From contig JAZRGR010000225.1 in NCBI GenBank assembly GCA_045644345.1, positions 15,146-79,145 of the forward strand: a stretch of DNA of 64,000 bases, given 5' to 3'. The notes below the pieces were generated by a model. That model searched no databases. It saw nothing but the letters and a program-made list of their open reading frames with translations, and had not been told where the DNA came from. The stretch's first letter is position 1. Every line of letters begins with the position of its first letter. The stretch is from Faecousia sp. Lineage in GTDB: Bacteria; Bacillota; Clostridia; Oscillospirales; Oscillospiraceae. Positions 12,650-58,411 of this stretch are shown here, in pieces. The position numbers and the translations under genes are program-made.

Positions 12650-15600
12650 TTATGGTGTGAAATAGTTTTTGGCGGCATCGGAATATGCCATGAGTGCCCT
12701 GCAGAGGTCTCCTAAGGCACCGGTTTTGTGATTGCCGTAGGTGTCAGGGCTGTACAGTAGGGTAGAGGATACAGGGGTATTGCCTACATAGATCTGCGCA
12801 GAAATCACTGCCCTTAGCTCCGCAGCAAGGAGAGTATCCAGTGTAAAGACGTATACACCCAGATCGGGGTTGTATAGCTCGGCATTTTCGATCCGGTAAG
12901 TCTTAGTGTTGCCATATATGTCTTCATAGGAGATATGCAGTGAGAGTGCGGACGGGTCTGCAGCATAATTCCCGGGATGGAAGACAAATTTCAGTGCTAC
13001 TTTAGACTCTAAATTCAAGGATTTCCCTGCCCATGTGACAGGCGGATTCTCCAAATCATTTAGCACTGTATTGGTATTGCCGAATACCACTTCCTCCGGA
13101 TCGGACAGGTAAGAGCGGTGAACCGAGGTCATGGCATAGTCAACAAGACTATCGGTGCGGTAGGACTTGAAAATCTGCGCCTTGGAGCCATAGCGGAGCA
13201 ATTCGGCACATAGAACTTTGAGAGCGACGGTAGAGCCATCTTTATCTAACTGTGAGTAGGCATAATCAGCAATGCTATAATCATCAATAGGGGAATAGTA
13301 GGGCTGACCATCTTTGGTCCCGTACAGGACGGAACGGAAACGGTCGTTCATTTGCACAGCCGTCAAACCGTTAAGGGTAAAATAGTAGTAATATCCTTGA
13401 TCGACGGGGAGCAGCTTGACGGTACGGGTGCCGATTTTCTCACTACCCTCATAAATGTCCAGCTCTGTGAGGACGTATACGGTACTCATATCATAGCCCT
13501 CTAAGAGACTCTTGCTGACTGCAAAATTTACAGAGATATCGCTGGCCAGATTCAGCGTGTGGTTGAGTTTTAGAGCAGTGTTTTCCATGGGTTCCTTAAC
13601 GTCATTCTGACCGCAGAGGCAGAGTCCGTCTATAAAGCTGTGAGACTCTTCTGCGCTGAAACCGCAGTGACAGAATTTTTGGTGACTGCTACCCTCTAAG
13701 GCTTCATAGGAGAAGCTGTGCGCCTCTGCTGTAAACAGAGGATGAAGAGTCGCTCCCGTAAACAGGGAACTCAGATCAACAAGCTGATCGTTCTGATCCG
13801 CCCAGCCGTGGAAGTTGTAGTGCATAGTTTCGTCTCCGGGTTTTACAGGGAGGGCACCCCTATAGACGGCTGAGGTGTTTCGATCCACAGAGCATCGCTC
13901 TAACACGGATCCACCCTCTGTAACGAAGGTTACGGAACCAATGGTGGGATTCTTCTCGGCAGGTCCGATGTAGATGTAATCAATGAGGAATTCTGCGGTT
14001 TTGCCGGATGCGTTCTTCATGTTTAAGAACTGAGGATGAACCAGATTGATCCAATCGGATGCGAGATATTCTGCATCCGTCAATTTGGTCTCAAGAATGA
14101 ACCAGCCCTTGTCTACATAGTCTGCAAGATTGAAGTCTATGGGAATATTAGTCCAAGTGCGGCTTGTGCCTGCGTTATTGACTAAAGTGTTACTGCGATC
14201 CAAATTCATGCGGAAGGTGACTATGCCGTTGTCTGTAGAAGCTACTGCATTTTTGATCCGGATGCGAACTTGGAGAATGTCATTCTTGCCGGGAACGAAG
14301 TGCATAGCACTGACATTATCCCTACGGTTACGGATGGAGTGACTTGTATCTGTGTTTCCGGTGGGGACGGCTAACTTTAGAGCACCGTCAGCAATGGTAG
14401 ACATGGGAGAGCCATTATATACGACCCAGTTAGAGGGATCGTCGAAGTTCAAGTGGTTGTAGGTGAAGTTGTTATAACGGTCCCGATCTTCGGCTGTGTT
14501 CGTAAAGTCAAAGAACAGGGTGTCGTCTTGTTTGGGGAAGGTCTCCTGAGGTCCAATGTAAATGTAGTCAATGGAGAAGACAGCAGTAGCGCCGCTTGCA
14601 GACTTCAGATTGACGAACTGAGGATGAACCAGGTTCATGAATTCAAACTTGTTATACTCTGCAGTGTTTAGAGGGAAGGAGAGGGTCACATAGCCCTTGC
14701 CAACCACATCGGCGACCTTAAAACTCTTTTCGAAACGGGTATAGGTCTTAGTGACATCTGCGGCATCGTTGAGATCGTTGGGACAGTCTACATCCAGACG
14801 GAATTTTGCTGTACCATCAGTGGTAGAAGCTACAGCATTATCGATCTTGAAGCGAACTTGGCAGTAGTCTGTGGATTTGGTGAAATAATGGAGGGGACGA
14901 TACGCCCACTGGCCCTTGGAGTTATTCAGGGGACGACTGTAAACACCTACAGAGGTAATGGTTCCGTCGATGGGAGAGAAACTGAGAACGCCGCGGCTGA
15001 TGGCACTTGCGGTGGTGTTAGCTTCATGATCCCAGTTCTCTTTCCGGTCGAAATTGATGCCACCGTATACAAAGCTGTGATACCGCTCCTGTGCCACGGA
15101 CTCATTGTTGAAGTCGAACATTAGATATGGATCGGATTGACTTTTATAGTTGGGGGCGGTTAGATTGGGGGTAGTTGTGGTTTTCAGTAGTTTCTTTGCG
15201 GCAGAGACACTTTCGATTTTAATGGTATTTGTCCCCAATGTGACGAATGAACCGCTGTATTTGTATGCTGCGTTATCTACATCACAGGAAATCAGCGTGG
15301 GGAAATTGGGATTGCTCACCTGACCACTTGCATTTGCGGTATGGAGGGTGTGGGTATAATTGTGACCGGAGAACATGAGGCTGATCCCCATTTGGTTAAG
15401 GATCCTCGTCCATTGCGCATAATCTTCCTGAATACCGGCTGTGGTGACTCGGGTCATGGGAATATGGCAGAAAGCGATTCTTGTCGGGTAATCCTTCCAT
15501 TTCCCTTGGGCGAGGACTTCCTCCAGCCACCGGGTTTGCTCCTTGCGAAGGTTCTGGTAATCTGTGGTGCCACCGTATTCGGCATGGCTGTCGATCTTAT

Positions 15601-17554: not shown

Positions 17555-17605
17555 CGGAATGCCTCCTTTTAATAATGTTGTGAATATGGCCGGAAGTGTA
17601 AACGA

Positions 17606-20600
17606 TTAAGATGCAAAATACTTTAGGGCACTGTCGCTGTAAGCAAAGAGTGCTTTGCATAGGTCACCTAAGGCACCGGTCTTATTGGCTCCATAGGTAT
17701 CTGCACTGTATTGCAGAGATTGAGATACGGGAGTAGTACCGTCATAGACCTGTACAGTGACAGGGCTACGCAATTCGGCTGCTAAGAGGCCATGGAAGGA
17801 GAATGCAAAGTGTCCCTCTGTTGTGCCATAGGGCTCCGGACTAGACACAAGGACGTCCTTTTTCTGCCCCATATAATCGGTGTAGGAGACCTTTAGTACC
17901 AGATCCGATGCATGGTCGCTCAGGGAACCGGCTTGGAAGATGAACTTTAGAGCGATCTTGGAATTCAGATCTAAAGACTTGCCCAACCAGGTAACAGTGG
18001 GGTTCGATATGTCATTCAGAGTTGCATTGGTGTTGCCGAGGATCACGGTTTCGAGGTTCTGAAGCCGAGTAAGATCCTCTGCGGTCATAGAACTGTCTGC
18101 GAGGGCATCGGTACGGTAATTCTTGAAGATCTGTGCAGATGCACCGTAACGGAGAAGCTGGGCACACACGTCTTTTAAGCTACCCGGTGCATCGACCTTT
18201 CTGAGCTGAGAATAGGCGTAATCAGCGATAGAATAGTCATCTGCGGGAGACTGATAGAGCTGACCATTCTTGCATCCGTAAATAACGGAACAGAAAATAT
18301 CATTCATCTGCACCGCTGTGAGACCCTCAAGGGTAAAGTAGTAATAGTAGCCTCGATCTACCGGGAGGAGCTTTATGGTTTTGGTTCCGATTTTACTGTT
18401 ACCCTCATAGATACCAAGCTCAGTGAGAATATATACTGTATCCGGATCAAATCCTTCCAATAGCGTCTTGCTGACGGCCAAATTGACGGAAATATCACTT
18501 GCAAGGTTCAGTGTGTGGTTGATTTTGAGGGTACTGTCCTCTATGGCATGTCCCGGATCGGCTGCACCACAGATACAGGTACCGTCCGTATAGTTGTGAG
18601 CTTCAACCTGAGATTTGGTGCAACGGCTGCATTGGATGATGTGATCGTCTCCGCGGTCTACATAGTGCATGTCATGGCCCAAACGGGGTAGGATCTCACG
18701 TTCTGCAAGGATTTCTCCACAAAGGTTACACAGGGAACCATCAGACCAACCGGAACCGACACATGTGGCAGGACAGCCGGGGACGACCTCAGGGCTGTGG
18801 CCCAATGCCGGTACTTCTGTGGGTACAGTCAAGATGGCCTCACACACAGTACAGTAGGAACCTTCGCTCTTTCCGGGTGCAGTGCAGGTGGGGGGAACAG
18901 GGGCAATGGTGGCAGGAGCGTGTCCCTCGACGGAAATAGAATCCAAATAGCTGTAGCCACAGGCACATAAGAATTCTTTCTGTCCCTCGTTGGTACAGGT
19001 AGAGGCGGTTATGATTCTTTCGGTATAGCTGTGAGCCTGTCCGGCGAAAGAAGCGTAGACGGTCATGGCACCTTGAATGCTGGTCAGATCGGCGAGGCTT
19101 CCGTCTTCTGTGATCCATCCTGCAAAGCTGTAATGGTTCTCTGCGTCATAGGATTTGGTAGGTGACTCACCATCATAAACAGCGGTTCCTCCCGGTGCTA
19201 CAGTCTGCTGTTGCAGAACTGTGCCGGTTTCATCGGCGAAGGTGACAACGGCGGCGGTGGGGCTCTTCTCCATAGGTCCAATATAAATATAGTCAATGAG
19301 GAATTCTGCATATTTGCCCGAGGCACTGGTCATGTTCTGGAACTGTGGATGAACCAGCGTGATCCAGTCGGAGGCAAGATATTCCGGATCCGTAAGGGGG
19401 AACTCCAAGGTGAACCAGCCTTGATCTACATAGTCTGCCAGAGTGAACGCAATGGGGATGTGCGTCCAGGTACGGCTGGAGCCGTCGGCAATCACAAGGC
19501 TGTTAGATCTGTCAATGTTCATGCAGAAGTTGACGATTCCGTTATCCGTGGAAGCAACAGCATTGTTGATCTGAATGCGAACCTGCAGAATATCGTTCTG
19601 GCCGGGGACGAAGTGAAGAACCTTGGCTTTGTCTTTGATGCTACGGACGCTGTGGCTGGTGTCGTAATTATAGTTGGGGATAGACAAACGAAGGACGCCA
19701 TCGGAAATGGAGGTCAGGGGAGAAGCATCATAGGGAGTCCAGTTCTTGGGATCGTCAAAGTTCAGATAGTTGTAGGTGAAGCTGTTGTAACGCTCACGGT
19801 CATCTTCGGTATTTTCGAAGCCGAAGAACAGGTAATCTTCTACTTCGGGGAAGAATTCTTCCGGTCCGATGTAAAGATAGTCTATGGAGAAGGTGGCGGT
19901 TGCACCGCTTGCGGACTTTATATCTACGAACTGGGGATGAACAAGATTGATATAACGGATCTTGTTATACTCAGCGGTGTTTAAGGGGAAGCAGAGACTT
20001 ACGTAACCCTTTCCAACCACATCCTCTACCCGGAAGCTCTGTTCAAAACGGGTATAGAGCTTGCTTGCATCGGCGGAATCGTCCAAATCGTTGGGACAAT
20101 CCACATCCAGCCGGAACTTTGCCATACCGTCAGCGTTGACCGCAATAGCATTGTCGATCTTGAAGCGGACGAGACAGTAGTCTGTGTCCTTGGGGAAGTA
20201 GTGGAGAGGACGGTATGCCCATTGATTCTTAGCACTTCCCTGAGGACGACTGTGGATACCCACAGAGGTTACGTTCGCTCCGGAGGGAGAGAAACTAAGG
20301 AAACCGCGAGTGATGGAGCTTGCGGTTGTGTTACTCTCACTGTCCCAATTTCCCTTTAGGTCAAAGTTCACACCACCGTACACGGGGCTGTCATATCTGG
20401 CCTGTGCCAGGGTATCGTTGATGAAGTCGAACATCAAATAGGGATCGGACAGAGCAGGGTAGTTCGGTGCCGTGCGGTTGGGAGTGGTGGAGGTCTTCAG
20501 CAGTTTTTTAGCTGCAGAGACGCTTTCAATGGTAATGGTTTCGGTTCCCAAGGTCAGATAGGAACCGCTGTAGGTGTATTCCGGATGCTCTACGTCACAG

Positions 20601-22870
20601 GAAATCAGAGTGGGGAAGTTGGGATTGCTTACATTGCCGCTGTCATCGGCAGGGAAGAGGTTGTGATCATAATAGTGACCGGAGATCAAGAGGCTGATGC
20701 CCATTTGATTCAGAATGTCGGTCCACTGGGCATAATCTTCCATGAGGCCCGGAGTGTTGATTCTGGTAATGGGGTAGTGACAGAAGGCAACTCTGGTAGG
20801 GTACTCCTTCCATTTCCCCTCAGCAAGGATCTCCTTCAGCCATTGAGTCTGTTCCTTACGGTGGGTCTCATAATCGACGGTGCTACCGTAGGCACTGTCG
20901 CTGTCTGCTTTGTCTTCGCCGGAATCCAATACGATAGCGAAGAAATCGGGCTGTTCAATGGTGTAATAGCTCTTTCCTTCAGGACCGGAGGGAGCGACCT
21001 CAGGCAGAAGATAGGACTTAGAACCTCGAATCTCACGGTTTCCACGGGTGAAAATGACGGGCTTTGTACCCTGGGTTAATGCACTTGCGGTGTCCAGAAG
21101 GAGTCGCACATTTCCTTCGCTGTTACCGTTGTTTCCATAGTCTCCACCGACAAACAAAGCGTCAAAGGACTTATATGCACCTACATTCTTTGCTTCGGTA
21201 GCAAGGCTACGGAAATCGGACAGACACAGGATTACAGGCTCATCTTTGTCTGCCATGGGGGTAAAGGGATAGGTGCGACTGACGGTGCTTCCGTGAGTGG
21301 GAGAATAGGCTTCTCTGTAGACCATGGACTGGTAGCTGACAGTATAGCTACGAGCGGTATCCAAAGCAACTCTGGGGACACGGATGCTGTGGTACTTGCT
21401 GGTATAGTTCATGAGGCCCATATCCTGATCGTAGTATTTCGTGCCTCCAACGGTTGCCCATGCCATACCGGTAGACTCTGTGGTGAAGATGATCTGGTAG
21501 CTGTCTTCTACAGCGAATACCGTGGGATGGAGAACATAGGGAGAAGAAATAGAAGGAACGGAAGCTTTGGTAGCGGGAGTAGAAATAACCACTACATTCT
21601 TGGACGTGGTGAGATCTATGTCGCTGTCCGTGTTGGGGGCCACATAGGCATTGGTGAAGACGGGGACGATTTTCGTTTCCTTCGCAACAAGATCATTTTG
21701 AACATTCTCGATTTTATATTCCGTAGGGGAGACTGTTAGGAAGGTGCCGCTGTAGGTACAGACATCGTTTTCACGGTCTGACATAATCAGGGTGGTAAAG
21801 TTGGGGTCTGCTTTATTTTTGCCGGAATTGGGGCCGTTTACAGCGTAGTTGTGCTTATGGCCGCAGACAAGGAGACTGATGCCCATTTGATCACAGAGAT
21901 CAGCCCATTCCTTGTAGGTGGACTCAAAGGTGTCCTGGGCGTAGAAGCTAAAGGGGACATGAGCGAATGCCATACGAACGGGATATTTCTCCCATTCACG
22001 GGAGGCAACGACCTCACGTAACCATTGGGTTTGGGCTTTTCGGTAGGCTGTAAATTGGACGGTTCCGCCGTATTCGGAGTGGCTGTCCACCTTGTCCTCA
22101 CCGGCATCCAGGACGATGCCGAAGATCCCGGGAAGTGTTACGGTATAATAGGGGCCTGTCTTATCACTGTAACCGGAGACACGGTAGATGTCCTCACAAT
22201 TGGAGCCACGGATCTCGTGGTTGCCACGGGTATAGATGGTGGGCTTTCTGCCCTGGGTCACGGCTCCGGTCATGTCCAGCAGGAGCTTAATGCCGGAATC
22301 ATCCATAAGGGTGCTGATATAGTCTCCGCCGAAGACATAGACATCGAAGCTTCTGGTTTTGGCAATCTTTAAATTGTTGGTGTTGGTGCCGTGCTGATCG
22401 GAACTGCAATAGAATACAGTGTTTCTATCCTCGGGGATTGGATCAAAGGGATAGGTGCGGCTGACCATAGAGCCGGGAACGGGATCGTAGGAGGGGCGAT
22501 TAGACAGGGAACGGAAACAAATGGTGTAAGAGTCTGCGGCATTGAGTACAGACTGAGGAACAGTGATCTTGTGATACTTGCTGTTCCAGCGGACAAGACC
22601 GTTTTGGGAATCTTGGTAGTTCACACCATTTACTTCTACCCATGCGATACCTGTGGCGTTGGTTGCAAAGGCGATCTGATAGGTATCCTCCACAATAAAT
22701 ACTGTGGGATGAGTAGTGAAGGGGGAAGAAATGGAAGGCACGGAGACAGCGGAGGTTTGTTCCTGTACCTCGGTTACCTTAGCCGCAAATGCGACGGAAG
22801 GAAACAGGGACAGGAGCAAACAGAGGAGCAGTGCTCCGCTTACGAGAATACGAAAAAGCTGGGGCTTCAT
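17606..22870 (-). CDS. Secreted multidomain metallophosphoesterase, tandem paralog of 12650-17554 with an expanded Cys/His repeat linker
   Basis: Signal peptide ending VAFA-A; SSDQH, GGDY, RGNHE, CGHKH; long near-identical stretches with the neighbour (SVPSISSP..HPTVF.VED.YQI). Confidence 0.8.
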   Translation of the reverse strand: MKPQLFRILVSGALLLCLLLSLFPSVAFAAKVTEVQEQTSAVSVPSISSPFTTHPTVFIVEDTYQIAFATNATGIAWVEVNGVNYQDSQNGLVRWNSKYHKITVPQSVLNAADSYTICFRSLSNRPSYDPVPGSMVSRTYPFDPIPEDRNTVFYCSSDQHGTNTNNLKIAKTRSFDVYVFGGDYISTLMDDSGIKLLLDMTGAVTQGRKPTIYTRGNHEIRGSNCEDIYRVSGYSDKTGPYYTVTLPGIFGIVLDAGEDKVDSHSEYGGTVQFTAYRKAQTQWLREVVASREWEKYPVRMAFAHVPFSFYAQDTFESTYKEWADLCDQMGISLLVCGHKHNYAVNGPNSGKNKADPNFTTLIMSDRENDVCTYSGTFLTVSPTEYKIENVQNDLVAKETKIVPVFTNAYVAPNTDSDIDLTTSKNVVVISTPATKASVPSISSPYVLHPTVFAVEDSYQIIFTTESTGMAWATVGGTKYYDQDMGLMNYTSKYHSIRVPRVALDTARSYTVSYQSMVYREAYSPTHGSTVSRTYPFTPMADKDEPVILCLSDFRSLATEAKNVGAYKSFDALFVGGDYGNNGNSEGNVRLLLDTASALTQGTKPVIFTRGNREIRGSKSYLLPEVAPSGPEGKSYYTIEQPDFFAIVLDSGEDKADSDSAYGSTVDYETHRKEQTQWLKEILAEGKWKEYPTRVAFCHYPITRINTPGLMEDYAQWTDILNQMGISLLISGHYYDHNLFPADDSGNVSNPNFPTLISCDVEHPEYTYSGSYLTLGTETITIESVSAAKKLLKTSTTPNRTAPNYPALSDPYLMFDFINDTLAQARYDSPVYGGVNFDLKGNWDSESNTTASSITRGFLSFSPSGANVTSVGIHSRPQGSAKNQWAYRPLHYFPKDTDYCLVRFKIDNAIAVNADGMAKFRLDVDCPNDLDDSADASKLYTRFEQSFRVEDVVGKGYVSLCFPLNTAEYNKIRYINLVHPQFVDIKSASGATATFSIDYLYIGPEEFFPEVEDYLFFGFENTEDDRERYNSFTYNYLNFDDPKNWTPYDASPLTSISDGVLRLSIPNYNYDTSHSVRSIKDKAKVLHFVPGQNDILQVRIQINNAVASTDNGIVNFCMNIDRSNSLVIADGSSRTWTHIPIAFTLADYVDQGWFTLEFPLTDPEYLASDWITLVHPQFQNMTSASGKYAEFLIDYIYIGPMEKSPTAAVVTFADETGTVLQQQTVAPGGTAVYDGESPTKSYDAENHYSFAGWITEDGSLADLTSIQGAMTVYASFAGQAHSYTERIITASTCTNEGQKEFLCACGYSYLDSISVEGHAPATIAPVPPTCTAPGKSEGSYCTVCEAILTVPTEVPALGHSPEVVPGCPATCVGSGWSDGSLCNLCGEILAEREILPRLGHDMHYVDRGDDHIIQCSRCTKSQVEAHNYTDGTCICGAADPGHAIEDSTLKINHTLNLASDISVNLAVSKTLLEGFDPDTVYILTELGIYEGNSKIGTKTIKLLPVDRGYYYYFTLEGLTAVQMNDIFCSVIYGCKNGQLYQSPADDYSIADYAYSQLRKVDAPGSLKDVCAQLLRYGASAQIFKNYRTDALADSSMTAEDLTRLQNLETVILGNTNATLNDISNPTVTWLGKSLDLNSKIALKFIFQAGSLSDHASDLVLKVSYTDYMGQKKDVLVSSPEPYGTTEGHFAFSFHGLLAAELRSPVTVQVYDGTTPVSQSLQYSADTYGANKTGALGDLCKALFAYSDSALKYFAS

Positions 22871-25011: not shown

Positions 25012-25053
25012 ACAGTGCCCTATCACGGTGAGTTCATCGTGATAGGGCAGTTT
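25010..25053. terminator. Bidirectional hairpin terminator between pulA and the LacI gene
   Basis: TGCCCTATCACG / CGTGATAGGGCA stem. Confidence 0.7.
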
Positions 25054-25056
25054 GGA

Positions 25057-26055: not shown

Positions 26056-26256
26056 GTGTATTCCTCCGACTTTCTTTTCCCCGATTATATCACAGGGAAG
26101 GGAAAAATGCAATCCTCTAAGGGATTTATGAAGAAAAAAGTTTCGATTAGTTTCGGAATGGGAGAGGAAGTGCCTGTAGAACATTGTGAATAAATACAAA
26201 AGAGTTGCGGGGAAATTAGTATTTATCATAAAAAACAAAGAATTTTAAATGGATTC

Positions 26257-26285
26257 TTGACGGGATCGGGATTATGCAATATACT
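26257..26285 (+). promoter_or_regulatory. Sigma-A promoter of the debranching enzyme-malL-malQ operon
   Basis: TTGACG-N17-TATACT. Confidence 0.75.
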
Positions 26286-26334
26286 TAGGATGTTACTGAT
26301 ATATTTTCGGAAAATTGCGGGAGGGGAGAGCGTT

Positions 26335-28290: not shown

Positions 28291-28292
28291 GG

Positions 28293-31477: not shown

Positions 31478-31569
31478 GAAAGACCGAGGAGAAAAGCAAC
31501 CAAGAGGAAAGAGTTGCCAAATGAGCAGAGTGCACAAAAAATGACAGAAAATTTTTTCTATTTTGGTAG

Positions 31570-31598
31570 TTGACGATTTTACAATGGAATGATATACT
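31570..31598 (+). promoter_or_regulatory. Sigma-A promoter of the maltodextrin ABC operon
   Basis: TTGACG-N17-TATACT with extended -10 TG. Confidence 0.8.
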
Positions 31599-31739
31599 AT
31601 TGGTGCTGAAGGACAAATGCACCATTAATTGACGCAAGAAACGGTGTTTCGTAAAGTTTCGATACGTCTTTCTGCACTACAACATGGCATCACCGGGGAT
31701 ATCCCCGTGGTAGCAATAAACAACAAATCTTAGGAGGAA

Positions 31740-35487: not shown

Positions 35488-35490
35488 AGT

Positions 35491-41100: not shown

Positions 41101-44016
41101 TCCGGTAAGATGACTATCAACTTCACCGGTAAGCCTGTTGACGAGAAGGCAAGACCCTCCCTGGTTCGTATTTACATCGGCTCCAATGAAAGCCGTGTAT
41201 TTAACACCTATGAGGATCATACCACCTATACCGTTACCTTTAAGGATGCAGACGGTACTGTTCTTGCTAACAAGAAGACCTATGCCGGTGGCACTGTAAA
41301 GGCTCCCGAGGCTCCCGAGATGGAAGGCTACACCTTTGCGGGATGGGATAAGAATTTCGATGCAGTTACCGAGAACTTGGTAGTTACTGCTACCTACGTT
41401 GCTAACGGTCCCAAGGAATTCGAGATCGTCGGTGAATGGGTATGGGGCGAAGACATCTATAATCTGGGTGCAGATACCGTTGTCGGTCGCTGTGCACAGA
41501 TGGGTGTTACCGATATCTATCTCCTGGTTAAGGGTACCGGCGGTAAGCTCAGCTTCCTGAACACCCGCTATCCCGATGCTACCTCCCGAACCGACCGTGA
41601 CGTTCTGCAGGAGTGTATTGATGTTGCCCATGCTGCGGGCATCCGTGTCCATGCATGGATGGTCACTGTGGAAGACAGCAACTACAAGGCAAACAACCCT
41701 GAGGCAGGTATGTACCACTACATCCGCGCCAGAGACAATGACCGGATCAATCCTTATGATGCAGGTTACCGTACCTATATGTCCAATCTGGTAACCGACC
41801 TGGTTTCCAATTACGACATTGATGGTCTGCACCTGGACTACATCCGCTACAACCACCTGTGCAACGGTTGGAGTGACACCGACTTTGCAAATCTGGCTGC
41901 AATGGGTGCCAATGTTGAGAATATCAAGTATATGATCGACAAGACCTTCTATGCAGACCGCCTCCCCACTGGTGAGTCTGTAGATGCCAACTACATCTTT
42001 AAGATGCTGGCAAACGGCGACAAGGACGCTACCATCGCAGCTCAGTACCGCCGTAACAACATTGTTGACTTTGCAAAGCTGCTGGTCAACACTGCTAAGG
42101 CTATTAAGCCCGATCTGATCATGTCTGCAGCTGTTATGCCCGAGGGTGGTGTTGCAGGCGGCAGTGCAGGCAGTGCCAATACCGGCTTTGCTGACCTCCA
42201 CTATGGTCAGAACTACACCGATGCAGCAGACATCTATGATTACATCGCTCCTATGGCATATACCGCAAGTTACGGCACCGGTCCTGACTGGTTCGCAGGC
42301 ATTGCTGAGTATGCCGCATCCGTAGGTAACGGTGTTGTTATGGGTACCCAGTCCTACTATCCTTCTGTTTCCGCCGATCTCATGGCTGAGATCGAGGCTA
42401 CCCGTGCACTGCTTCCCATGGAAGGCATCCTGGGTATCGTTCACTTCCGTCACAGCCAGTTCAGCTATGTGAAGTTCGCTACTGATATGGCTGCAGGAGA
42501 GATGGATGTTCATGCCATCAACACCTATGCAAGCGGCGGCTTCAACTGGCTGCGGATCGAGGCTGCAGAGGGTGTCACCTTTACCGGTGCACAGTACCTC
42601 AACGGCTTCAATGCAGAGGCTCCCATTACCATTGCTCCCGATGGAAGCTACATTATCTTTGGTTACGAGGATATTTCCGGCACCGTTCTGCCCACACTGG
42701 CAGAGGGCGACCTCCGCATTACCTTCACCGGCAAGCCTGTTGACCCCAACGGACGTATTGCCATCGGCCGCATCTACATCGTATCCAATGAAAGCCGCGC
42801 ATACAGCACCTACACCACCCGTTGCAGTCATAGCTGGGGCTTGGGCACTGTAGCCCTTGAAGCAACCTGCACTGCAAGAGGTGCAATAGTTTCCGAGTGT
42901 GCTCTCTGTGGAGAGGCTAAGGTTGACAGCATCCCTGCTACCGGTCACAGCAAGACCTACACTTATGTAGATGCAGAGTACCACATGGTCGGCTGCTCCA
43001 AGTGTAACTTCGAAGAACTGGACGTCCATGAGTATGTTGACGGTATCTGCATCTGCGGTGCGGACAATACAACTGTGACAGAGGATCCTGCGATTATGAT
43101 CAGTCATACACTGAATCTTGCCAGCGATATTTCTGTGAACTATGCAGTTCTCTACACATACCTCAACGGGTATGATATGAACTCTGTATATCTGGAAGTT
43201 GAGATGGATGACTACGACGGAAATATCAAGACAGGAACGACTGTGCAGAAACTGCTGCCTGAGCGTCGCGGTAATTTCTACTATTTCGCTCTGGATGGTC
43301 TGAATGCTGTACAGATGAACAATGAGCTCCGTGCAGTTCTCTATGGACAGAAGAATGGCAAGAACTATTGCTCTGCGGTAGATACCTATTCTGTTGCACA
43401 GTATGCTTATTCTCAGCTCAATAAGACTACTGTTGCTGATAGCCTCAAGGTCCTGTGTGCTGATCTGCTCCGATACGGTGCAAAGGCACAGACCTTCAAG
43501 GGATATCGCACCGATGCTCCGGCAGATCAGAATATGACTGCAGTGCATAAGGCATATCTCAGCGATATCGACAATGTCACCTTTAACAACAATGCCTTTG
43601 AGTTCGGATTTATTCCCAATCCCACAGTTGCATGGGCAGGCAAGGCACTGGACCTGAATGCCAAGGTCGGTGTTCGCTATGTTGTGGATCTGACCAACTA
43701 TGCAGGCAAGATCGAGGATCTGAGTCTCCAGGTTACCTATGTTGATATTTACGGTGTAAGCCGTATGGAGACTGTGGAGGAGATCGAGCTGTACTATGCT
43801 CCCATGAACCAGTACGCATTCACCTTCGAGGGACTCCTTGCAGCAGAGCTTCGTGTTGTTCTGACTGCTAAGGTTATGGAGAACGGCAATCCCGTCTCCA
43901 ACGACCTGATCTATAGTGCCGATACTTACGGCATCGGTAAGACAGGTGTTCTGGGTGAGCTGTGCAAGGCACTCTTTGCCTACAGCGACAGCGCGAAGGC
44001 ATACTTCGTCGATTAA
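38107..44016 (+). CDS. Secreted 1969-aa protein: three tandem GHL10/DUF187-like TIM-barrel units, each with a beta-domain and separated by InlB-B-like repeats, then a Cys/His linker and the shared C-terminal module
   Basis: Start ATG 38107 after AAAGGAG; signal peptide ending PVAA-E; three copies of GIRVHAW, DG.HLDYIRY, DY..PMAY. Confidence 0.75.
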   Translation: MSKRALSLILCLSMLLSMIVLPVAAERKAETKAPAVQEEFEIVGDWVWGETVYSLGADKIVDRSARMGVTDLYMLAKGTGGKLSYLKTQYKDALARTNRDVMQELITAAHKKGIRVHAWLVTVEDEYYKSKHPEAGVYHYVRGTDNNRINPYDAGYRTYMSNIVTEIVSGYDIDGIHLDYIRYNHVANGWSATDFANIKAMGADVEQVKYMINKTFYQDKLPAGETVNERYLFDAYRNGDPTALLIGQYRRDNIANFARLLRDAAKAADPEIIFTGALMPEGGVTYGDEDIAFGDLHYGQNYKDAAEIYDYVCPMAYSASYEAEPRWMADIATYCVEIGADVVMGLQSFSPLTTARLMADIEAVRGLLPMEGVLGIAHFRHTQFSYAKTNYNYNTGVMDIEYINASESGSIKWVKVDVPAGMKITKASVVSGFKSSSPISVSSDGRTATIGYSDTSSSTILAALGEGKLRVQFTGRPNDETVRASLVRSYIGSGETRVYNVYEDMTNFKVTFVDHDGTTLATKTVAPGGSVEAPEDPIRYGYVFAGWDKSFETVNSDLTVTARYEKIQVAGEFEIVGDWVWGEDVYNLGAKTVVDRSVKYGVTDLYMLAKGTGGKLSYLKTQYTDARARTDRDVLQELITEAHKQGIRVHTWLVTVEDAYYKSKHPEAGVYHYVRGTDNDRINPYDEGYRTYMSNIVKEIVSGYDVDGVHLDYIRYNHLANGWSDTDFARIAAMGADVEQVKYMIHKTFYQDKLPAGDVMDENYAFDAYRNGDPTAMLIAQYRRNNINDFAKLLRDTAKSVDSDIIFTGALMPEGGVTYGKEDIAFGDLHYGQNYADAAEIYDYICPMAYSASYEAEPQWMADIASYCVEVGNDVVMGLQSFYPLTSTQLMGDINAVRGLLPMEGVLGIAHFRHSQFSYSRAIYDYNTGVMNIDFLNASSAGGCQWLIVEVPQGMKITKATLGTGFTSGAPVSIASDGRSVKFGYADTSSSTVIGSLKSGKMTINFTGKPVDEKARPSLVRIYIGSNESRVFNTYEDHTTYTVTFKDADGTVLANKKTYAGGTVKAPEAPEMEGYTFAGWDKNFDAVTENLVVTATYVANGPKEFEIVGEWVWGEDIYNLGADTVVGRCAQMGVTDIYLLVKGTGGKLSFLNTRYPDATSRTDRDVLQECIDVAHAAGIRVHAWMVTVEDSNYKANNPEAGMYHYIRARDNDRINPYDAGYRTYMSNLVTDLVSNYDIDGLHLDYIRYNHLCNGWSDTDFANLAAMGANVENIKYMIDKTFYADRLPTGESVDANYIFKMLANGDKDATIAAQYRRNNIVDFAKLLVNTAKAIKPDLIMSAAVMPEGGVAGGSAGSANTGFADLHYGQNYTDAADIYDYIAPMAYTASYGTGPDWFAGIAEYAASVGNGVVMGTQSYYPSVSADLMAEIEATRALLPMEGILGIVHFRHSQFSYVKFATDMAAGEMDVHAINTYASGGFNWLRIEAAEGVTFTGAQYLNGFNAEAPITIAPDGSYIIFGYEDISGTVLPTLAEGDLRITFTGKPVDPNGRIAIGRIYIVSNESRAYSTYTTRCSHSWGLGTVALEATCTARGAIVSECALCGEAKVDSIPATGHSKTYTYVDAEYHMVGCSKCNFEELDVHEYVDGICICGADNTTVTEDPAIMISHTLNLASDISVNYAVLYTYLNGYDMNSVYLEVEMDDYDGNIKTGTTVQKLLPERRGNFYYFALDGLNAVQMNNELRAVLYGQKNGKNYCSAVDTYSVAQYAYSQLNKTTVADSLKVLCADLLRYGAKAQTFKGYRTDAPADQNMTAVHKAYLSDIDNVTFNNNAFEFGFIPNPTVAWAGKALDLNAKVGVRYVVDLTNYAGKIEDLSLQVTYVDIYGVSRMETVEEIELYYAPMNQYAFTFEGLLAAELRVVLTAKVMENGNPVSNDLIYSADTYGIGKTGVLGELCKALFAYSDSAKAYFVD
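38221..42810 (+). repeat. Three ~1.6-kb intragenic direct repeats
   Basis: GA(G/A)TTCGA(A/G)ATCGT.GG.GA.TGGGT.TGGGG at 38221, 39820 and 41416 (periods 1599 and 1596 nt). Confidence 0.9.
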
Positions 44017-44115
44017 GTCTCGGATACTCTGATTGAACGAAAACAAGGGGGCTGTCATTTTGACAGTCCCCGAATCTTATTTTTGAGTATGCAACGGGAT
44101 TTTTTTAACTTCCCG

Positions 44116-49586: not shown

Positions 49587-49597
49587 TAGGTGAAAGT

Positions 49598-50701: not shown

Positions 50702-50735
50702 TCCTTTTTAGTTATATAGATAGGAGGGGGTTCCT

Positions 50736-52690: not shown

Positions 52691-55600
52691 ATGATGAAAC
52701 GCATCTTGAGCATGACGCTGTTGGTAGCGATGCTGCTGACACTGCTTCCTGCGATGTATTTTGAGGTATTAGCAGCGACCTACACTACTGCAGATTGGAA
52801 CGCCCTGCGGAATAATTGGAAGATCTCCATTTGCGGTGATGATACGGTGGATTGGTCCGATTCCGAGATTCAAAAGATTGTGGGACAGACCAACAGTTCC
52901 GGAGTGTCCTCCTCCGGCATTAGCTACAACGGTGGCAAGTATTGGAGAGATCTGGAGTCCAACCGTTCCAATTCCGGGCGGGTTTTTGGTAGTACGAACA
53001 TTACCATTACTGTATCCAGTGATACCATGCGGAAACAGTTTGTCTATTTGATGCACATGGCTAAGGCGTATGGTACCCGTGGAACGGTCTACACCTATAA
53101 AGATAGCAATGGGAGCTTGATAGCTACAGAGCTGTATCAGAATCAAGATCTGAGAAATGCCATATTCTACGGATTAGGGAAGTCAACCGGTTTTTTTAAT
53201 AAAGATCGGTGGTCTTCGCAGAAGAGTAGCAGTACCGCGACTACCTACTACAACTGGTGGGATTGGGCTTTTGGCTCTCCGGATGAGATTTTGCAGACTC
53301 TCCTTGTCATGTATCCATTCAAGACCACTGCAGAGAAGGATACAGCCAACAAGCTTATGGATACCTGTCGGTATTTGATCGATGCCATTCGACCCAATAA
53401 TGACGGAAAGACAGATGAAACGTCTATCAGCTATCGTCGTACTCGTCTGCGGATCTGCGGCATGATCGCGGCACTGAAGCAGGATACTGCCCTCATGGAG
53501 CAGACTCGCACGAATTTGGTCAATTTCCTCGAACAGAATGATGGTGGTAATGGTGTGCAGATGGATGACTCCTATGTTGCCCATGATTCTTTTGCCTACG
53601 AAGGTTGCTACGGTGTGCAGAATCTGGCGGAGCGCATTATTGGCAGTTATTACGTAATGGCAGGTACAGCCTTCGAGTTAGATGCTTCAAACAAGCATAA
53701 TCAAGTAGACTGGATCCTAAAAACCTTTATGCCCGCTATGCACAACGGTGTCATGATGATGCAGAGCAACGGCAGATTCCCGGCGAGCGGTCGGGAATAC
53801 GGCAGGTATGCCATTACAGCGGCATTACAGCTACTGGGGTGCTTTGCACCGGAGGATGATCTGCAGCTTATCCAATTCATTCGCGACATTGTTGTACAGG
53901 ACTCTGAGGCAGAAACCTACAAGATCTATTCTGCATTGGCAGTAGCTCTGGGAAATGTCATGCTGGTTCAGCGACTGAAAGAATGCGTATTCGAGTATAA
54001 CGTACCGCAACTTGGGGGTACCTATGCCCGGATGCGGTATAGGAACGATCGTGCAGTACAGCATACAGAGAACTATACCGTAGGGCTCGCTATGAGTTCC
54101 CGACGAATCGCAACCCATGAGAGCATCAACGGTGCGAACCGCTATGGTTGGTACATCGGTGACGGCGCTCTGTATGTGTATAACGACAAGACCACCGTCT
54201 CATATGACCAGTATGGTGCTGACTTTAACCGATATGCCAATATGTATCGGATCCCCGGAACCACGGAGGAGAACAGCACTGCGCGGAAGCCTGTGTCTCA
54301 GAGGGAGGAATATTTCCCGGGTATGACCTATACCTCCTCCGGTTGGACCCAGGACAAGAATAAGGACGGGGTAGATGCAGGCGCCTTTGTAGGTGGTGTG
54401 GATTTAGACGGGCAGTTCGTTGCGGCGGCAATGGACTTTGAGGCATATAGTTGGTCTTCTGCGGAATCTACCGTAGAGAAGACGAAGATTAAGAGTCCTG
54501 TGGAACGGAATAATCTGAAGCAGGTCCTAACATCGAATCTAACGGCAAAGAAGTCCTATTTTATGTTCGATGATGAAATTGTCTGCGTGGGTAGCGACAT
54601 TGATTTCAGTACTCGTAGCAATTCCGTCTATACCTATGTGGATAATCGTGAGCTGACAGAAAAGACTACCATTGACGGTGTGACCACCTATGGAACCGAG
54701 GATATTATCGTTGACGGTGTCACACTGGAGAAGGTCAACTCCTTCTCTACCAAGAAGTATACGGATCCGGGCTGGGTATATGCAGGTAACTTTGGTGGCT
54801 ATGTTTTCCCCAAAGGAGGCAATATTACCATTAAGAAAGCCTTCCGTGAATCTTCGGCAGATGGGGATAATACCAACGACAGCTTTAATGATTATACCTT
54901 GGGTGCTACTGCACCTAACGGCAAGCACAGCTTCTTCGAAATGTGGGTAGACCATGGCTCCAAGCCTGTGGACGGCAGCTACAGCTATGTCATGCTCCCA
55001 GGTAAAACACCGGCGGAGACCCAAGGGTATAGTAAGAGCCCGGATATCACCGTTTCCAAGAATACAACGTCTATGCACGTTGTCAAGGAGAATACACTCG
55101 GTATTACTGCTATGGTATTCTGGAAGGCGGGTACCTACGGTGATATTACTGTAGACAAGCCCATGATCGTCATGGTACGGGAGTTGGATGGTATGTATAC
55201 CATTAGTGTCTCAGATCCTACCCAGGAGTTGAGCTCCGGCACCATTACCATCAACCGTGCTCTCCATAGCTGGGATATCAACAGCCGCATGACAGTGTCC
55301 GGTACTTCTAAGATCACGATTAAGGTCAACTTCAGTGGTGTCAAGGGTGCATCTATTGCAAGCGAATTTTCTATTGCCGACACCCAGCAGCTTATGTTCG
55401 ACTTCACTAAGGTCAATTCCGGTAAATATCACGATAAGCTCTACGGCTTCAAAAATTATGGCAATGTCAACAACTGGGCGCCTATGCGGATCCCCAGCGA
55501 CGCTCTGTCCTTTAGCGGCGGCAAGCTCATTGTTCCCTTGACTACGGAGAAGGACAGCTCCGGGAATCTCCGGTATCACACCTATATCCAGCCTTCGGAT

Positions 55601-58411
55601 TCCAAGACGAACTTTGTATGGAACTCCAACTATACTGACAATGCCTATCTGAATTTCAAGGCATCTAATGCTGAGATTTTCCAGATCCGTCTGAAATTAG
55701 AGGGGGCAACAGCCTATGGCTCTTACGATCCCGGTGTATACTTGACGTATTTGCCTGATGGATCCAAGTATTGGAGTGGAAGCAGCGATGCTGAAAATGA
55801 TTGGAAGGAGACCATCAAGGCTACGATTCCGGAAGAGTGTATGAAGGGTGGTTCTTTGGAAGGGAAGTATGTGACCCTGACCTTTGATTTGAGCAATAAG
55901 AAGATTTCCTCTTGCGGAACCATCAAGGCTGTGACATTTATGCTGGGGTATATGTATGGAGGGAAAGCCACCATAGACCATATCTATATCGGCAGGAAGA
56001 CACATAGTCTCTACTTCGGCTTCGGCAAGGATGGTTCGGTCCCACACTATGTAGAAGGCGCCTATGGCGGACACGACTTTGATGATGCTGTCAATCCTAC
56101 TTGGGCAACCAATTGCACCCGGGAAGCGGGACAATATTTCAAGCTGGATCCTATAGAAGGTACTATGACCATTTATACAGGCGGGGATTACAATGGTACG
56201 TTAGGAAGCGGGGAAAATTACGGAGCCTATTTGGGCACATCCTCTGTTTCGGGGAATTATGCCTTCTCAGGTGATCTTGAGGAGCACCCACTGTCATATG
56301 ATCCCTCCCAGGCAGAGATCGTAGAGGTACGATTTAAGACAGAAGCACTGATGGCTCAGCAGGGTAAAACACCTCAACTCCGCCTTATGGCAGTGCAGGA
56401 GACAGATGGCGTGACCTCTGCCAATTCCGATGCCAATGTACCTTTTACAATTACCAACGGACAGTGGCAGACGGTACGGATCCCTATTAACGATAAGCTC
56501 AAGGAAGCTGATTACCTAAAATCTCTCGGCATTCGCTTCTGCTATACTCGCAATCAGGCGGACGGTGAATTTGCTAAAATCGTTGTGGACTATATCTACA
56601 TGGGCAAGGAGTCTGAGGCACCCTCTAAGCTCTATATCGGTTTTACCAACAAGGATACGGATAAGGAACGCTACCTTAGCCAGACCTACGGTAATGTGAA
56701 TCTGGACGCAGGTGGTTGGAAGCAGAGTGGGAGATTATCCAATCCTGTATTCTCCTCCTCTAATGGGGGTACCATGACACTGACGGTCAAGGCAGATGCC
56801 GATGCAGGTGTCCTTTATGTCCAGAGCTCGCCCTCTATCAATAAGCCTCTGTGTATGGAGTTTGATACCAAGGGGGCAGAGGTGGTCCAGCTCCGCTTCA
56901 AGCTGAAGAACTTCAAGGCCAACGGCACTCCCAAGGTAGGAGTCTACTTCTACAGCACTACTACCTCCCATCCCATGGGCACAGATTCTATCCTAAATGC
57001 CTGCACAGATTTCTGTTATCTCACAGGGGAGGAACTGAACAACGATACCTATATCACCATGACCCTTCCTGTTAGCGATGCGGTCAAGGCTGTGGAGAAA
57101 ATCACAGCTCTGCGACTGAATTTTGCCGGCATGGAGAGCATCGGTACCGCACAGTTAGGTGTCATTACAGTTGACTATATTTATATGGGGCCCAAGGCAT
57201 TTGCACCTACCGGTTGTGCTACGGTGACCTATGTGAACGAAGACGGGACCATCTTGATGACAGAAACTGTGGTTAAGGGGATGGAGGCTACATACACAGG
57301 CACCACACCTACCAAGAAACCCACCGAGACCGAGCATTATGCTTTCGTAGGTTGGGATAAGGATCTAACCAATGTTGAGGAAGATCTGAGGACTGTGGCA
57401 CAGTTTAAAGCAGAGGCACACAGCTTTGTTAACGGCATCTGCTCTTGTGGACAGATGGACAATAAGGAGCCTGTAGAGGATCCTACCCTCAAGCTGGGTC
57501 ATACCCTGAATCTTGCCAGCGATATCTCTGTGAATTTTGTGATCCTTAAGCAGAATTTGGAAGGCTTTGATCCTGACTCCATCTATGCAGAATGCACCTT
57601 AGATACCTATGAGGGAAGCATCAAGACAGGCACACGGACCGTAAGAATGGAGCCTGTGGACAAGGGGATCCACTATTACTTCACCCTCAACGGGCTCACA
57701 GCCATTCAGATGAATGACTCCATTGCAACGACTCTATACGGTGTGAAGGACGGAACGATCTACACCTCTCCCGTAGATATCTATAGCATTTCCACCTATG
57801 CCTATTCCCAGATGAACAACCCGGATCGCGCAGAGAGCCTCAAGATCCTGTGCGCAGATCTCCTGCGCTACGGTACCAAGGCGCAGATCTTTAAGTCCTA
57901 CCGCTTAGATGCTCCTGCAGACAGCGCTATGACAGAGGAACACAAGGCATATCTGTCGGACATAGAGGCAGTGACCTTCGGCAATACCAACGTGGTTCTG
58001 AATGATCTACCCAATGCGCCCATCACCTGGGCAGGTAAATCCCTCAATTTGGAATCCAAGGTATCTCTCAAGTTTGTCTTTAACCCCTCCAATTATTCCG
58101 GGGATCTGTCTGCACTGACCCTGCGGATCTCCTACACAGATGCATACGGGAACACCAAGACAGCTACCGTAGCCGATCCTGTCCTGTACAATACCCAGTT
58201 AAGCTACTACGTGTTCACTGTAGACAGTCTCCTTGCCGCAGAACTGAGAGCAGTGATTTCCGCTCAGGTTTACGCAGGAGACGCCCCCGTATCTGCCACC
58301 CTGCAATACAGTCCCGATACCTACGGCAACGGCAAGAGTGGCACCCTCTTAGACCTGTGCAAAGCTCTATTTGCATACTCTGACAGTGCGAAAGCATATT
58401 TCATGAATTGA
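52691..58411 (+). CDS. Secreted PL8-like polysaccharide lyase with three repeat modules, B-repeat and the shared C-terminal module
   Basis: NWWDWAFG, DDSYVAH....Y.G.YG, GWYIGDG..Y, RIPGTT, AKKSYFMFDDEIVC.GSDI, DHGSKP....YSY..LP. Confidence 0.8.
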   Translation: MMKRILSMTLLVAMLLTLLPAMYFEVLAATYTTADWNALRNNWKISICGDDTVDWSDSEIQKIVGQTNSSGVSSSGISYNGGKYWRDLESNRSNSGRVFGSTNITITVSSDTMRKQFVYLMHMAKAYGTRGTVYTYKDSNGSLIATELYQNQDLRNAIFYGLGKSTGFFNKDRWSSQKSSSTATTYYNWWDWAFGSPDEILQTLLVMYPFKTTAEKDTANKLMDTCRYLIDAIRPNNDGKTDETSISYRRTRLRICGMIAALKQDTALMEQTRTNLVNFLEQNDGGNGVQMDDSYVAHDSFAYEGCYGVQNLAERIIGSYYVMAGTAFELDASNKHNQVDWILKTFMPAMHNGVMMMQSNGRFPASGREYGRYAITAALQLLGCFAPEDDLQLIQFIRDIVVQDSEAETYKIYSALAVALGNVMLVQRLKECVFEYNVPQLGGTYARMRYRNDRAVQHTENYTVGLAMSSRRIATHESINGANRYGWYIGDGALYVYNDKTTVSYDQYGADFNRYANMYRIPGTTEENSTARKPVSQREEYFPGMTYTSSGWTQDKNKDGVDAGAFVGGVDLDGQFVAAAMDFEAYSWSSAESTVEKTKIKSPVERNNLKQVLTSNLTAKKSYFMFDDEIVCVGSDIDFSTRSNSVYTYVDNRELTEKTTIDGVTTYGTEDIIVDGVTLEKVNSFSTKKYTDPGWVYAGNFGGYVFPKGGNITIKKAFRESSADGDNTNDSFNDYTLGATAPNGKHSFFEMWVDHGSKPVDGSYSYVMLPGKTPAETQGYSKSPDITVSKNTTSMHVVKENTLGITAMVFWKAGTYGDITVDKPMIVMVRELDGMYTISVSDPTQELSSGTITINRALHSWDINSRMTVSGTSKITIKVNFSGVKGASIASEFSIADTQQLMFDFTKVNSGKYHDKLYGFKNYGNVNNWAPMRIPSDALSFSGGKLIVPLTTEKDSSGNLRYHTYIQPSDSKTNFVWNSNYTDNAYLNFKASNAEIFQIRLKLEGATAYGSYDPGVYLTYLPDGSKYWSGSSDAENDWKETIKATIPEECMKGGSLEGKYVTLTFDLSNKKISSCGTIKAVTFMLGYMYGGKATIDHIYIGRKTHSLYFGFGKDGSVPHYVEGAYGGHDFDDAVNPTWATNCTREAGQYFKLDPIEGTMTIYTGGDYNGTLGSGENYGAYLGTSSVSGNYAFSGDLEEHPLSYDPSQAEIVEVRFKTEALMAQQGKTPQLRLMAVQETDGVTSANSDANVPFTITNGQWQTVRIPINDKLKEADYLKSLGIRFCYTRNQADGEFAKIVVDYIYMGKESEAPSKLYIGFTNKDTDKERYLSQTYGNVNLDAGGWKQSGRLSNPVFSSSNGGTMTLTVKADADAGVLYVQSSPSINKPLCMEFDTKGAEVVQLRFKLKNFKANGTPKVGVYFYSTTTSHPMGTDSILNACTDFCYLTGEELNNDTYITMTLPVSDAVKAVEKITALRLNFAGMESIGTAQLGVITVDYIYMGPKAFAPTGCATVTYVNEDGTILMTETVVKGMEATYTGTTPTKKPTETEHYAFVGWDKDLTNVEEDLRTVAQFKAEAHSFVNGICSCGQMDNKEPVEDPTLKLGHTLNLASDISVNFVILKQNLEGFDPDSIYAECTLDTYEGSIKTGTRTVRMEPVDKGIHYYFTLNGLTAIQMNDSIATTLYGVKDGTIYTSPVDIYSISTYAYSQMNNPDRAESLKILCADLLRYGTKAQIFKSYRLDAPADSAMTEEHKAYLSDIEAVTFGNTNVVLNDLPNAPITWAGKSLNLESKVSLKFVFNPSNYSGDLSALTLRISYTDAYGNTKTATVADPVLYNTQLSYYVFTVDSLLAAELRAVISAQVYAGDAPVSATLQYSPDTYGNGKSGTLLDLCKALFAYSDSAKAYFMN

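Follow-up and report, generated by a model that had tools for sequence, protein, structure and literature searches.

What does a domain do that closes four very large secreted proteins, all encoded within one stretch of a gut bacterial chromosome? The stretch, hereafter the window, comprises 64,000 nucleotides (nt) of Faecousia sp. (contig JAZRGR010000225.1, positions 15,146 to 79,145) and is an ordinary piece of chromosome, with ∼49% G+C, from a cattle-gut bacterium. It holds five very large exoprotein genes, which we term open reading frames (ORFs) A to E, and the products of ORFs A to D end in the same module of ∼300 amino acids (aa). Comparison of sequences indicates that this module defines a real, large, and taxonomically concentrated domain family that is unnamed in the libraries searched.

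A module shared by four exoproteins

We delimited the module from the invariant His of HTLNLASDISVN through the stop codon. Copy A then covers 12650..13561 on the minus strand (the last 303 aa and the stop codon of ORF A), copy B lies at 17606..18517 on the minus strand (end of ORF B), and copy C lies at 43105..44016 on the plus strand (end of ORF C). Copy D (57500..58411, plus strand) was the reference for our structural model and has its first repeat at ∼57503-57892 and its second at ∼58040-58399. Each copy has exactly 303 aa, and the four align without any gap, with a pairwise protein identity of 51 to 63% and tblastn E-values of 1e-103 to 1e-130. We found exactly four copies in the window, both by tblastn and by a six-frame profile search, and the latter did not detect a degenerate fifth copy.

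At the DNA level, the copies are 55 to 63% identical overall and 31 to 40% identical at third codon positions, and the longest identical run is 20 nt (copies C and D). The near saturation of third positions and the lack of indels are indicative of old paralogues under protein-level selection, and purifying selection keeps the module in dozens of paralogues per genome. The low third-position identity rules out a recent duplication or gene conversion as the source of the similarity. The module of A is closest to that of D (63 to 66% identity), yet the head of A is closest to that of B, and this disagreement between the module tree and the head tree argues that the module has been shuffled or exchanged between genes.

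We then analyzed the proteins that carry the module. ORF A (12650..17554, minus strand; 1634 aa) encodes a signal peptide, two metallophosphoesterase domains, two jelly-rolls that resemble carbohydrate-binding modules (CBMs), a Listeria-Bacteroides repeat, a Cys/His motif, and the module. ORF B (17606..22870, minus strand; 1754 aa) is a paralogue of A, with 67% identity over the 1,313 aa upstream of the module, and has extra Cys-rich repeats ahead of the module. ORF C (38107..44016, plus strand), with a likely start at the ATG at 38107, which is preceded by GGAG, encodes a signal peptide, three units composed of a GHL10 glycosidase-like domain and a Listeria-Bacteroides repeat, Cys/His motifs, and the module. 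ORF D (52691..58411, plus strand; 1906 aa) encodes a signal peptide, a PL8 lyase, three CBM-like jelly-rolls, a Listeria-Bacteroides repeat, a Cys/His motif, and the module. By hmmscan against Pfam, A and B each have two Metallophos domains as their catalytic part, C has three GHL10 domains, and D has a full PL8 lyase with its N, super-sandwich, and C domains. Sec-type N-termini were recognized by eye in all four proteins.

A first-pass annotation, made from the letters of the window, had reported the four copies at these places, an internal duplication of the module, the catalytic nature of the heads, and the presence of Sec signals without LPXTG, hydrophobic tail, SLH, or dockerin on A to D, all of which held in our analysis. 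Its description of the carriers as four unrelated enzymes has to be narrowed: the heads are of three types and not four, A and B being paralogues, and A, B, and D have the jelly-rolls, the repeat, and the Cys/His motif in common. Likewise, the similarity that it had noted between the DNAs of the copies is visible in the 20-nt run but is modest overall.

The fifth gene, ORF E (58568..63334, plus strand; 1588 aa), encodes a PL8 paralogue of D without the module. D and E are 42% identical from end to end, E stops 4 aa past the Cys/His motif, and our search for a module relic downstream of ORF E found none. E is a natural module-less counterpart of D and, as such, a ready control for any work on localisation.

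Anatomy, extent, and known relatives of the module

Comparison of the two halves of the module with hhalign revealed an internal duplication (96.5% probability, E=1e-9, 28% identity over 119 columns). An AlphaFold2 model, computed from a 39-sequence alignment, gave one confident body (mean predicted local distance difference test score [pLDDT], 93.6; predicted template modeling score [pTM], 0.88). In this model, a short helix and then a long one come after each of two beta-sandwiches of ∼7-8 strands, and a conserved linker joins the halves, so that the module is predicted to be a rigid pseudo-symmetric pair of sandwich-plus-helix units.

We evaluated conservation in 238 full-length copies, and the positions given here are at least 90% conserved. 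They form the first strand, H-x-L-n-L-A-S-D-I-S (that is, H-(T/S)-L-(N/D)-L-A-S-D-I-S), then in half 1 a P..G.YYYF strand and the segment D-x-Y-S-x-x-x-Y-A-Y, which leads into the helix LKxLCADLLRYGxxAQxxKxYR. Half 2 contains W-x-G-K-x-L-x-L-x-S-K-V, L-x-A-x-E-L-R, and Y-S-x-D-T-Y-G, and the module closes with the helix LxxLCKALFAYSDSAKxYF. Conservation peaks in the first strand, in the Tyr-rich segment before each helix, and in both long helices, and Tyr, Trp, Asp, Gln, and Arg abound among the conserved residues of exposed type. At equivalent places, each long helix has one invariant Cys (position 117 or 286 in D numbering from T1605). In this domain, which lies outside the cell of a strict anaerobe, the two Cys might form a disulfide, bind a metal, or make a buried contact. 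We define the family by a length of ∼303 aa, the H-(T/S)-L start given above, the A-Y-S-D-S-A-K-x-Y-F end followed by 1 to 4 aa, and a pair of homologous halves whose long helices both contain an invariant "LC"; all four copies of the window show every one of these features.

A profile search of 1.84 billion cluster representatives yielded 7,315 matches at E≤1e-3, 3,565 at E≤1e-10, and 941 at E≤1e-30. Some 6,400 of these matches form the weaker tail of the family, and detailed inspection covered the best 80 to 150 matches per search. The C-terminal place and the signal peptides that the first-pass annotation had pointed to in the window extend to the family. In the best 150 of the 7,315 matches, found in proteins of 357 to 3,661 aa, the module ends at most 3 residues from the C-terminus in all but three cases. 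A signal-peptide-like N-terminus was recognized by a simple rule in 123 of 147 representatives, and all 147 end in ...AYSDSAKxYF plus 1 to 4 residues. We confirmed at least 493 loci in species-representative genomes. The best 80 loci came from seven metagenome-assembled genomes (MAGs), five named "Faecousia sp." and two named "Oscillospiraceae bacterium," from cattle and water-deer rectum, with one Faecousia MAG contributing at least 21 copies. All of the significant copies in these loci (86/86) end 0 to 6 residues before the stop codon. A module-bearing fragment (P0404) is labelled "Methanocorpusculum sp." in NCBI and is most likely a mis-binned Oscillospiraceae contig.

The module is added once per protein, almost always beyond a stalk of CBM-like and repeat domains, and is both single and terminal in ∼98% of cases. 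The earlier proposal that it is portable was supported, as at least 30 different Pfam head types carry it. Pfam families were compiled for 67 representatives (the 25 most frequent of 27 in one set and all 25 in the other). The enzyme heads among them are NAGPA, heparinase II/III, PL8, GH88, GHL10/GHL6, GDPD, Metallophos, Exo_endo_phos, and the metallo-beta-lactamase fold. The other heads are BspA-type leucine-rich repeats (LRRs), PA14, LamG, C-type lectin, the sialidase N-terminal domain, CBM96, and ricin-type lectin. SLH, CWB, LysM, and dockerin are not among the families listed for these 67 members, cohesin cases apart.

We then searched for a known family to which the module might belong. 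Hmmscan against Pfam-A (2025 copy) gave no credible match to the module (thresholds of E≤0.1 for the five whole proteins and of E≤10 for the four modules alone), NCBIfam release 20 gave none at E≤1, and a profile search of all PDB sequences (E up to 10) returned chance-level matches only. The best sequence matches, TPR_18 (0.03) and 1y80 (0.066), were taken as chance. The hmmscan searches detected neither SLH (PF00395) in the five proteins or the modules nor type I dockerin (PF00404) in the module, and the same method found true dockerins elsewhere. CWB2, WxL, GW, LysM, SH3b, and choline-binding repeats had no match in Pfam or NCBIfam and are not among the families listed for the 67 members. 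A regular-expression search for LPXTG followed by a hydrophobic segment and a basic tail was negative in the 147 representatives and in 485 ORFs of the loci, and the tails of the four ORFs lack such a signal. The C-terminal domain of the type IX secretion system (T9SS; Por_Secre_tail, PF18962) did not match the module either; that domain is a single sandwich of ∼80-100 aa from Bacteroidota hosts with a T9SS, and the host lineage here is Oscillospiraceae. Every named database relative is a "hypothetical protein," and we found no published description of the module in the literature on Faecousia, on anchoring and cohesins in Oscillospiraceae, or on surface-anchoring domains. Hence, the absence of a characterised family, suspected from the start, was borne out for Pfam, NCBIfam, and PDB sequences.

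Structural comparison led to the same point. Foldseek with the pLDDT 93.6 model against the PDB retrieved tandem immunoglobulin (Ig)/fibronectin type III receptors with a template modeling (TM) score of ∼0.2, and the best single-domain matches were CBM39 (3aqx) and CBM56 (5t7a), with a TM score of ∼0.53 on the target. These two matches are weak and generic (TM score of 0.2 on the query, E of ∼1e-3, identity of 12 to 18%, and root mean square deviation of 3.7 to 6.1 Å). Each resembles one sandwich of the module but has neither the C-terminal helix nor the tandem arrangement, and the likeness is that of a generic Ig-like sandwich. A search of BFVD gave nothing better than the PDB matches. The Foldseek check that had been suggested thus returned no characterised family, although generic Ig/CBM-like sandwiches did match. 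As to membership in a CBM family of CAZy, there was no Pfam CBM match and no PDB sequence match, only this weak single-sandwich likeness. For GAIN/GPS, there was no Pfam match and no GAIN entry among the 50 best Foldseek matches.

Cohesin-bearing members and the proposed role

Three or four members of the family join the module with a cohesin, namely, P0246, P0264, and P0185, together with P0408, a fragment of the P0246/P0264 kind. P0246 (643 aa) and P0264 (565 aa) are composed of a signal peptide, the module, one or more Listeria-Bacteroides repeats (Flg_new), and a cohesin, which scored 38 to 39 bits against a Pfam cut-off of 24. Since the module precedes the other domains in these two proteins, it is an autonomous domain that does not need a free C-terminus. 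P0185 (808 aa) is composed of a signal peptide, a cohesin, BspA LRRs (LRR_5), a Cys motif, and the module. It comes from a Faecousia MAG with at least 21 module genes and is encoded at the end of a cohesin-dockerin cluster (L083). The module of P0185 holds the place that SLH repeats or LPXTG occupy in anchoring scaffoldins such as SdbA, OlpB, and ScaE.

Cluster L083 (209-12427) also encodes a lipoprotein with a Pro/Thr-rich linker, a Flg_new repeat, and a cohesin; two membrane-anchored Flg_new-cohesin-like proteins; an uncharacterised protein of 391 aa; and a 1,880-aa protein with cohesin, dockerin, and LRRs. The locus around P0246 (L081, 317-9692) is syntenic with it, three of its four genes matching L083 genes. 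Such clusters are conserved in Faecousia-type bacteria and are not obviously cellulolytic; they encode several small Flg_new-cohesin proteins that are lipoproteins or membrane anchored, one conserved protein of 300 to 390 aa, and a ∼1,900-aa protein with an N-terminal cohesin, a dockerin, and LRRs.

Evaluation of the gene order revealed that the first gene of L081 has the module where its L083 counterpart has a lipobox and a Pro/Thr linker. The Flg_new-cohesin cassette of P0246 has 120 listed homologues, and the module is absent from all of them (0/120). We read the N-termini of 13 of these cassette homologues and found a transmembrane signal-anchor in three (P0297, P0300, and P0353) and a lipobox in two (P0271 and P0274). 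Within one cassette, the module therefore alternates with membrane tethers. The co-occurrence with cohesin is the best functional clue, and it gives circumstantial support for anchoring.

We propose that the module may be a non-covalent cell-surface tether that holds secreted proteins on the envelope of the producing cell, a proposal that we would be no more surprised to see confirmed than overturned. According to this proposal, Sec would export the protein with its terminal module, and the conserved face of the module would bind one common envelope component. The CBM-like jelly-rolls, together with the Listeria-Bacteroides repeats and the small Cys/His units, would form a stalk that spaces the catalytic head from the cell, so that the head would be displayed on the cell instead of being lost to the gut lumen. 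The retained cargo would include exported enzymes, adhesin-like LRR proteins, and cohesin scaffolds. We infer the binding and its ligand from the architecture, distribution, selection, and substitution pattern described above. As to the ligand, a glycopolymer of the cell wall seems to us likelier than a protein, given that the sandwich fold has conserved Tyr, Trp, Asp, Arg, and Gln and that the module genes have no linked receptor gene. In function, the module is most likely a variant of the surface-retention modules of Gram-positive bacteria. Three further points speak for a tether: one substrate-specific role fits poorly with mutually unrelated heads and a fixed terminal place, the proteins already bear two or three CBM-like jelly-rolls able to bind substrate, and no alternative anchor was seen, be it SLH, CWB, LysM, or dockerin in 67 members (cohesin cases apart) or an LPXTG tail in 485 ORFs.

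Several observations weigh against this proposal. The survey of other anchors in the 485 ORFs spans ∼0.5 Mb of biased fragments. The combination of a cohesin with a binding module is also the design of primary scaffoldins that bind substrate (CBM3 in CipA), and a close paralogue of D, ORF E, lacks the module. The module is acidic, with a median isoelectric point of 4.85 that is equal to that of the rest of the protein, which rules out a basic electrostatic binder of the teichoic-acid type. We also clustered 244 neighbor ORFs from the 80 loci and found only antisense shadows and further large exoproteins as recurrent families; no conserved neighbor gene in these loci points to a receptor, a wall-polymer pathway, or a processing enzyme. 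The first-pass annotation had envisaged an envelope-anchoring or docking domain and, beyond it, a sorting system. Anchoring is plausible on the circumstantial ground of the cohesin architectures and of the replacement of the lipobox or transmembrane anchor, with substrate binding and protein docking as rivals. The sorting system was not supported, since no dedicated partner or processing gene lies beside the module genes and since the module is also internal or N-terminal in P0246 and P0264. As for the scaffold or partner genes that were expected alongside, the cohesin-bearing members do lie in cohesin-dockerin clusters, but no neighbor recurs across the 80 loci.

Among known systems, SLH triplets are terminal, repeated, and non-covalent. 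They consist of three tandem units of ∼55 aa, are found on the anchoring scaffoldins SdbA and OlpB of Acetivibrio thermocellus, and have a pyruvylated secondary cell-wall polymer as ligand. The module is similarly terminal, repeated, and common to unrelated exoproteins, and it occurs on the cohesin-bearing P0185. However, the SLH unit is small, of a three-helix type, and occurs in sets of three, whereas the module has two sandwich-plus-helix units in ∼300 aa and shows no sequence match to SLH. Sortase LPXTG signals, CWB2 (Clostridioides), WxL (enterococci and lactobacilli), GW, and choline-binding repeats all retain exported proteins on monoderm envelopes, which is the role that we presume for the module, but the module has no sequence match to any of them, no LPXTG with a transmembrane tail, and a different fold.

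The module might instead be a CBM that targets substrates or particles, concentrating enzymes on insoluble gut material (mucus or glycocalyx, plant or microbial walls, or biofilm matrix) in the manner of CBM3 or CBM2. We consider this unlikely, even though each half is an Ig-like sandwich whose best single-domain matches, CBM39 and CBM56, bind beta-1,3-glucan, and even though the conserved exposed-type Tyr, Trp, Asp, Gln, and Arg are those of sugar-binding sites. CipA-type scaffoldins also pair a cohesin with a binding module, and many of the heads act on glycans and phosphodiester-linked glycopolymers, which form one broad polymer class. Yet these fold matches are weak and generic, CBMs usually vary in number and position where the module is nearly always single and terminal, and the proteins already hold jelly-rolls of the type-B CBM kind. 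Moreover, the module is also found on BspA-type LRR, lectin, and metallo-beta-lactamase-fold proteins, and in the cohesin cassettes it replaces membrane anchors and not CBMs. We regard it as quite improbable that the module is a protein-protein docking domain, an analogue of dockerin for a repeated S-layer or scaffold receptor in which the duplication would give two equivalent faces. Type I dockerins have ∼70 aa with two 22-residue Ca-binding loop-helix repeats and bind cohesin. Like dockerins, the module is C-terminal, has an internal two-fold repeat, and is found on diverse enzymes, with a single copy in each protein and dozens in a genome. It also co-occurs with cohesin-dockerin clusters, and its conservation is strongest in two amphipathic helices that have an invariant Cys at equivalent positions, a pattern that would suit a protein interface. 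Against this, the ∼300 aa of the module are four times the size of a dockerin, without Ca-binding EF-hand repeats or a Pfam dockerin match. Canonical Pfam dockerins are present in the same lineages and even in the same clusters, so that the cohesins do not need the module, and neither a repeated receptor nor a recurrent neighbor was found in the 80 loci.

A device for secretion, folding, or release (an intramolecular chaperone, a sorting signal, or an autoproteolytic module akin to GAIN/MAIN) is very improbable in our view. The strict C-terminal place, the invariant first His, and the nearly fixed ...AYSDSAKxYF end with its 1 to 4 residues could suggest such a device. Microbial GAIN (MAIN) domains lie between heads and anchors of similar surface enzymes and have an H-x-(S/T) cleavage site in the last strand of the GAIN-B sandwich, followed by a separate anchor (10.64898/2026.05.12.724683). 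The module resembles them in belonging to signal-peptide proteins with large enzymatic or adhesive heads, in its cell-proximal place, and in an invariant His near a strand start (10.64898/2026.05.12.724683). It differs in that its H-(T/S)-L lies in the first strand, its fold is unmatched, with no GAIN entry among the 50 best Foldseek matches and no GPS/GAIN match from Pfam, and nothing follows it; a GAIN/MAIN-like autoproteolytic module was ruled out on motif and fold. In addition, P0246 and P0264 have further domains after a module that lies near their N-terminus, the transmembrane segment or basic tail of sortase and exosortase signals is missing, no gene for a processing enzyme is linked in the 80 loci, and paralogue E, which has no module, is presumably folded and exported nonetheless.

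Taking the surface tether further, and leaning very slightly toward doubt, we suggest that the module might be the anchor of an unrecognised surface-display system in Faecousia-type Oscillospiraceae. Such a system would have no relation to sortase or SLH and would rest on binding to an envelope polymer or receptor specific to the lineage. It would carry essentially the whole repertoire of exo-enzymes and adhesins, which amounts to dozens of proteins per cell, and a non-cellulolytic cohesin-dockerin assembly would have its base among them. The module bears on how uncultured gut Oscillospiraceae retain very large exo-enzymes on the cell, Faecousia-type members being abundant in the ruminant and human gut. 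The module is unnamed in the annotation libraries used, despite thousands of cluster representatives, and its family definition, profile, and model would let annotators flag a surface proteome in which cohesin scaffolds and LRR adhesins stand beside glycosaminoglycan lyases and phosphodiester glycosidases, and would identify the likely anchoring part of a cohesin-dockerin system other than a cellulosome. The module could also be a compact handle for surface display or for fishing the cognate wall polymer. Were it a glycan binder instead, it would represent a new CBM family with an unusually strict architecture.

Companion domains and setting of the exoprotein genes

Upstream of the module, we found a second unannotated domain of ∼190 aa that ends in DYIYxG(P) and is present in ten copies: two in A (13958-15133, minus strand), two in B (19271-20446, minus strand), three in D (55382..57196, plus strand), and three in E (61319-63046, plus strand). 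The AlphaFold2 model of this domain (pLDDT 86) is a beta-jelly-roll, for which Foldseek retrieved type-B CBMs (CBM16, 4, 22, 28, and 30) with TM scores of 0.35 to 0.49 on the query; Pfam gave no match above threshold.

Between the jelly-rolls and the module of A, B, and D, a Listeria-Bacteroides repeat is followed by the Cys/His motif, H-x-[YF]-x2-3-G-x-C-x-C-G. This motif is located at ∼57419-57451 in D and ∼63287-63319 in E and also occurs upstream of the modules of A, B, and C. In the 147 representatives, it is present anywhere in 75 and ends exactly 16 residues ahead of the module in 49. An H-x3-C-x2-C and repeats of a "P-A-x-G-H ... C-T ... C-x2-C" unit often come before it. These Cys/His units look like small zinc-binding units of extracellular proteins.

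Opposite ORF C, a stop-free, codon-aligned frame runs through 1,968 codons on the minus strand (38152-44058), and a second antisense frame (31677-33026, minus strand) lies opposite a gene for a solute-binding protein (31740-32972). The codons TTA, CTA, and TCA make up 6 of the 2,015 codons of ORF C (3.0 per 1,000, versus 11 to 24 per 1,000 in most neighbors), none of them inside the antisense ORF, and none of the 410 codons of the solute-binding protein gene. The GC skew is ∼0 in both regions, versus 0.08 to 0.17 in other blocks. The likely cause of the antisense frames is the strong codon bias of highly expressed genes, not the presence of a true gene on the opposite strand.

The rest of the window contains an alpha-glucan utilisation locus (23047-37095) and housekeeping genes (dnaX, recR, recD2, mreB, and the gene for diaminopimelate dehydrogenase). 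The sequence of the window is present in bovine gut metagenomes, and none of the RNA runs searched contained it. One end of the window is the end of a prophage (39-8551, plus strand), with a tail-fibre-like ORF of at least 1,881 aa that has a DUF6273 C-terminus and possibly enters from upstream; a similar giant ORF (BppU_N/DUF6273) adjoins the cohesin cluster in L083. The prophage end also encodes an Amidase_3 endolysin and a DUF6275 protein whose match to an Acb2/Tad1-type hairpin (24.6 bits) is below the cut-off of 27. At the other end, a short ORF with RCC1 repeats (63397-63900, minus strand) may belong to a further large surface protein, as its tail, with the remainder lying past the window.

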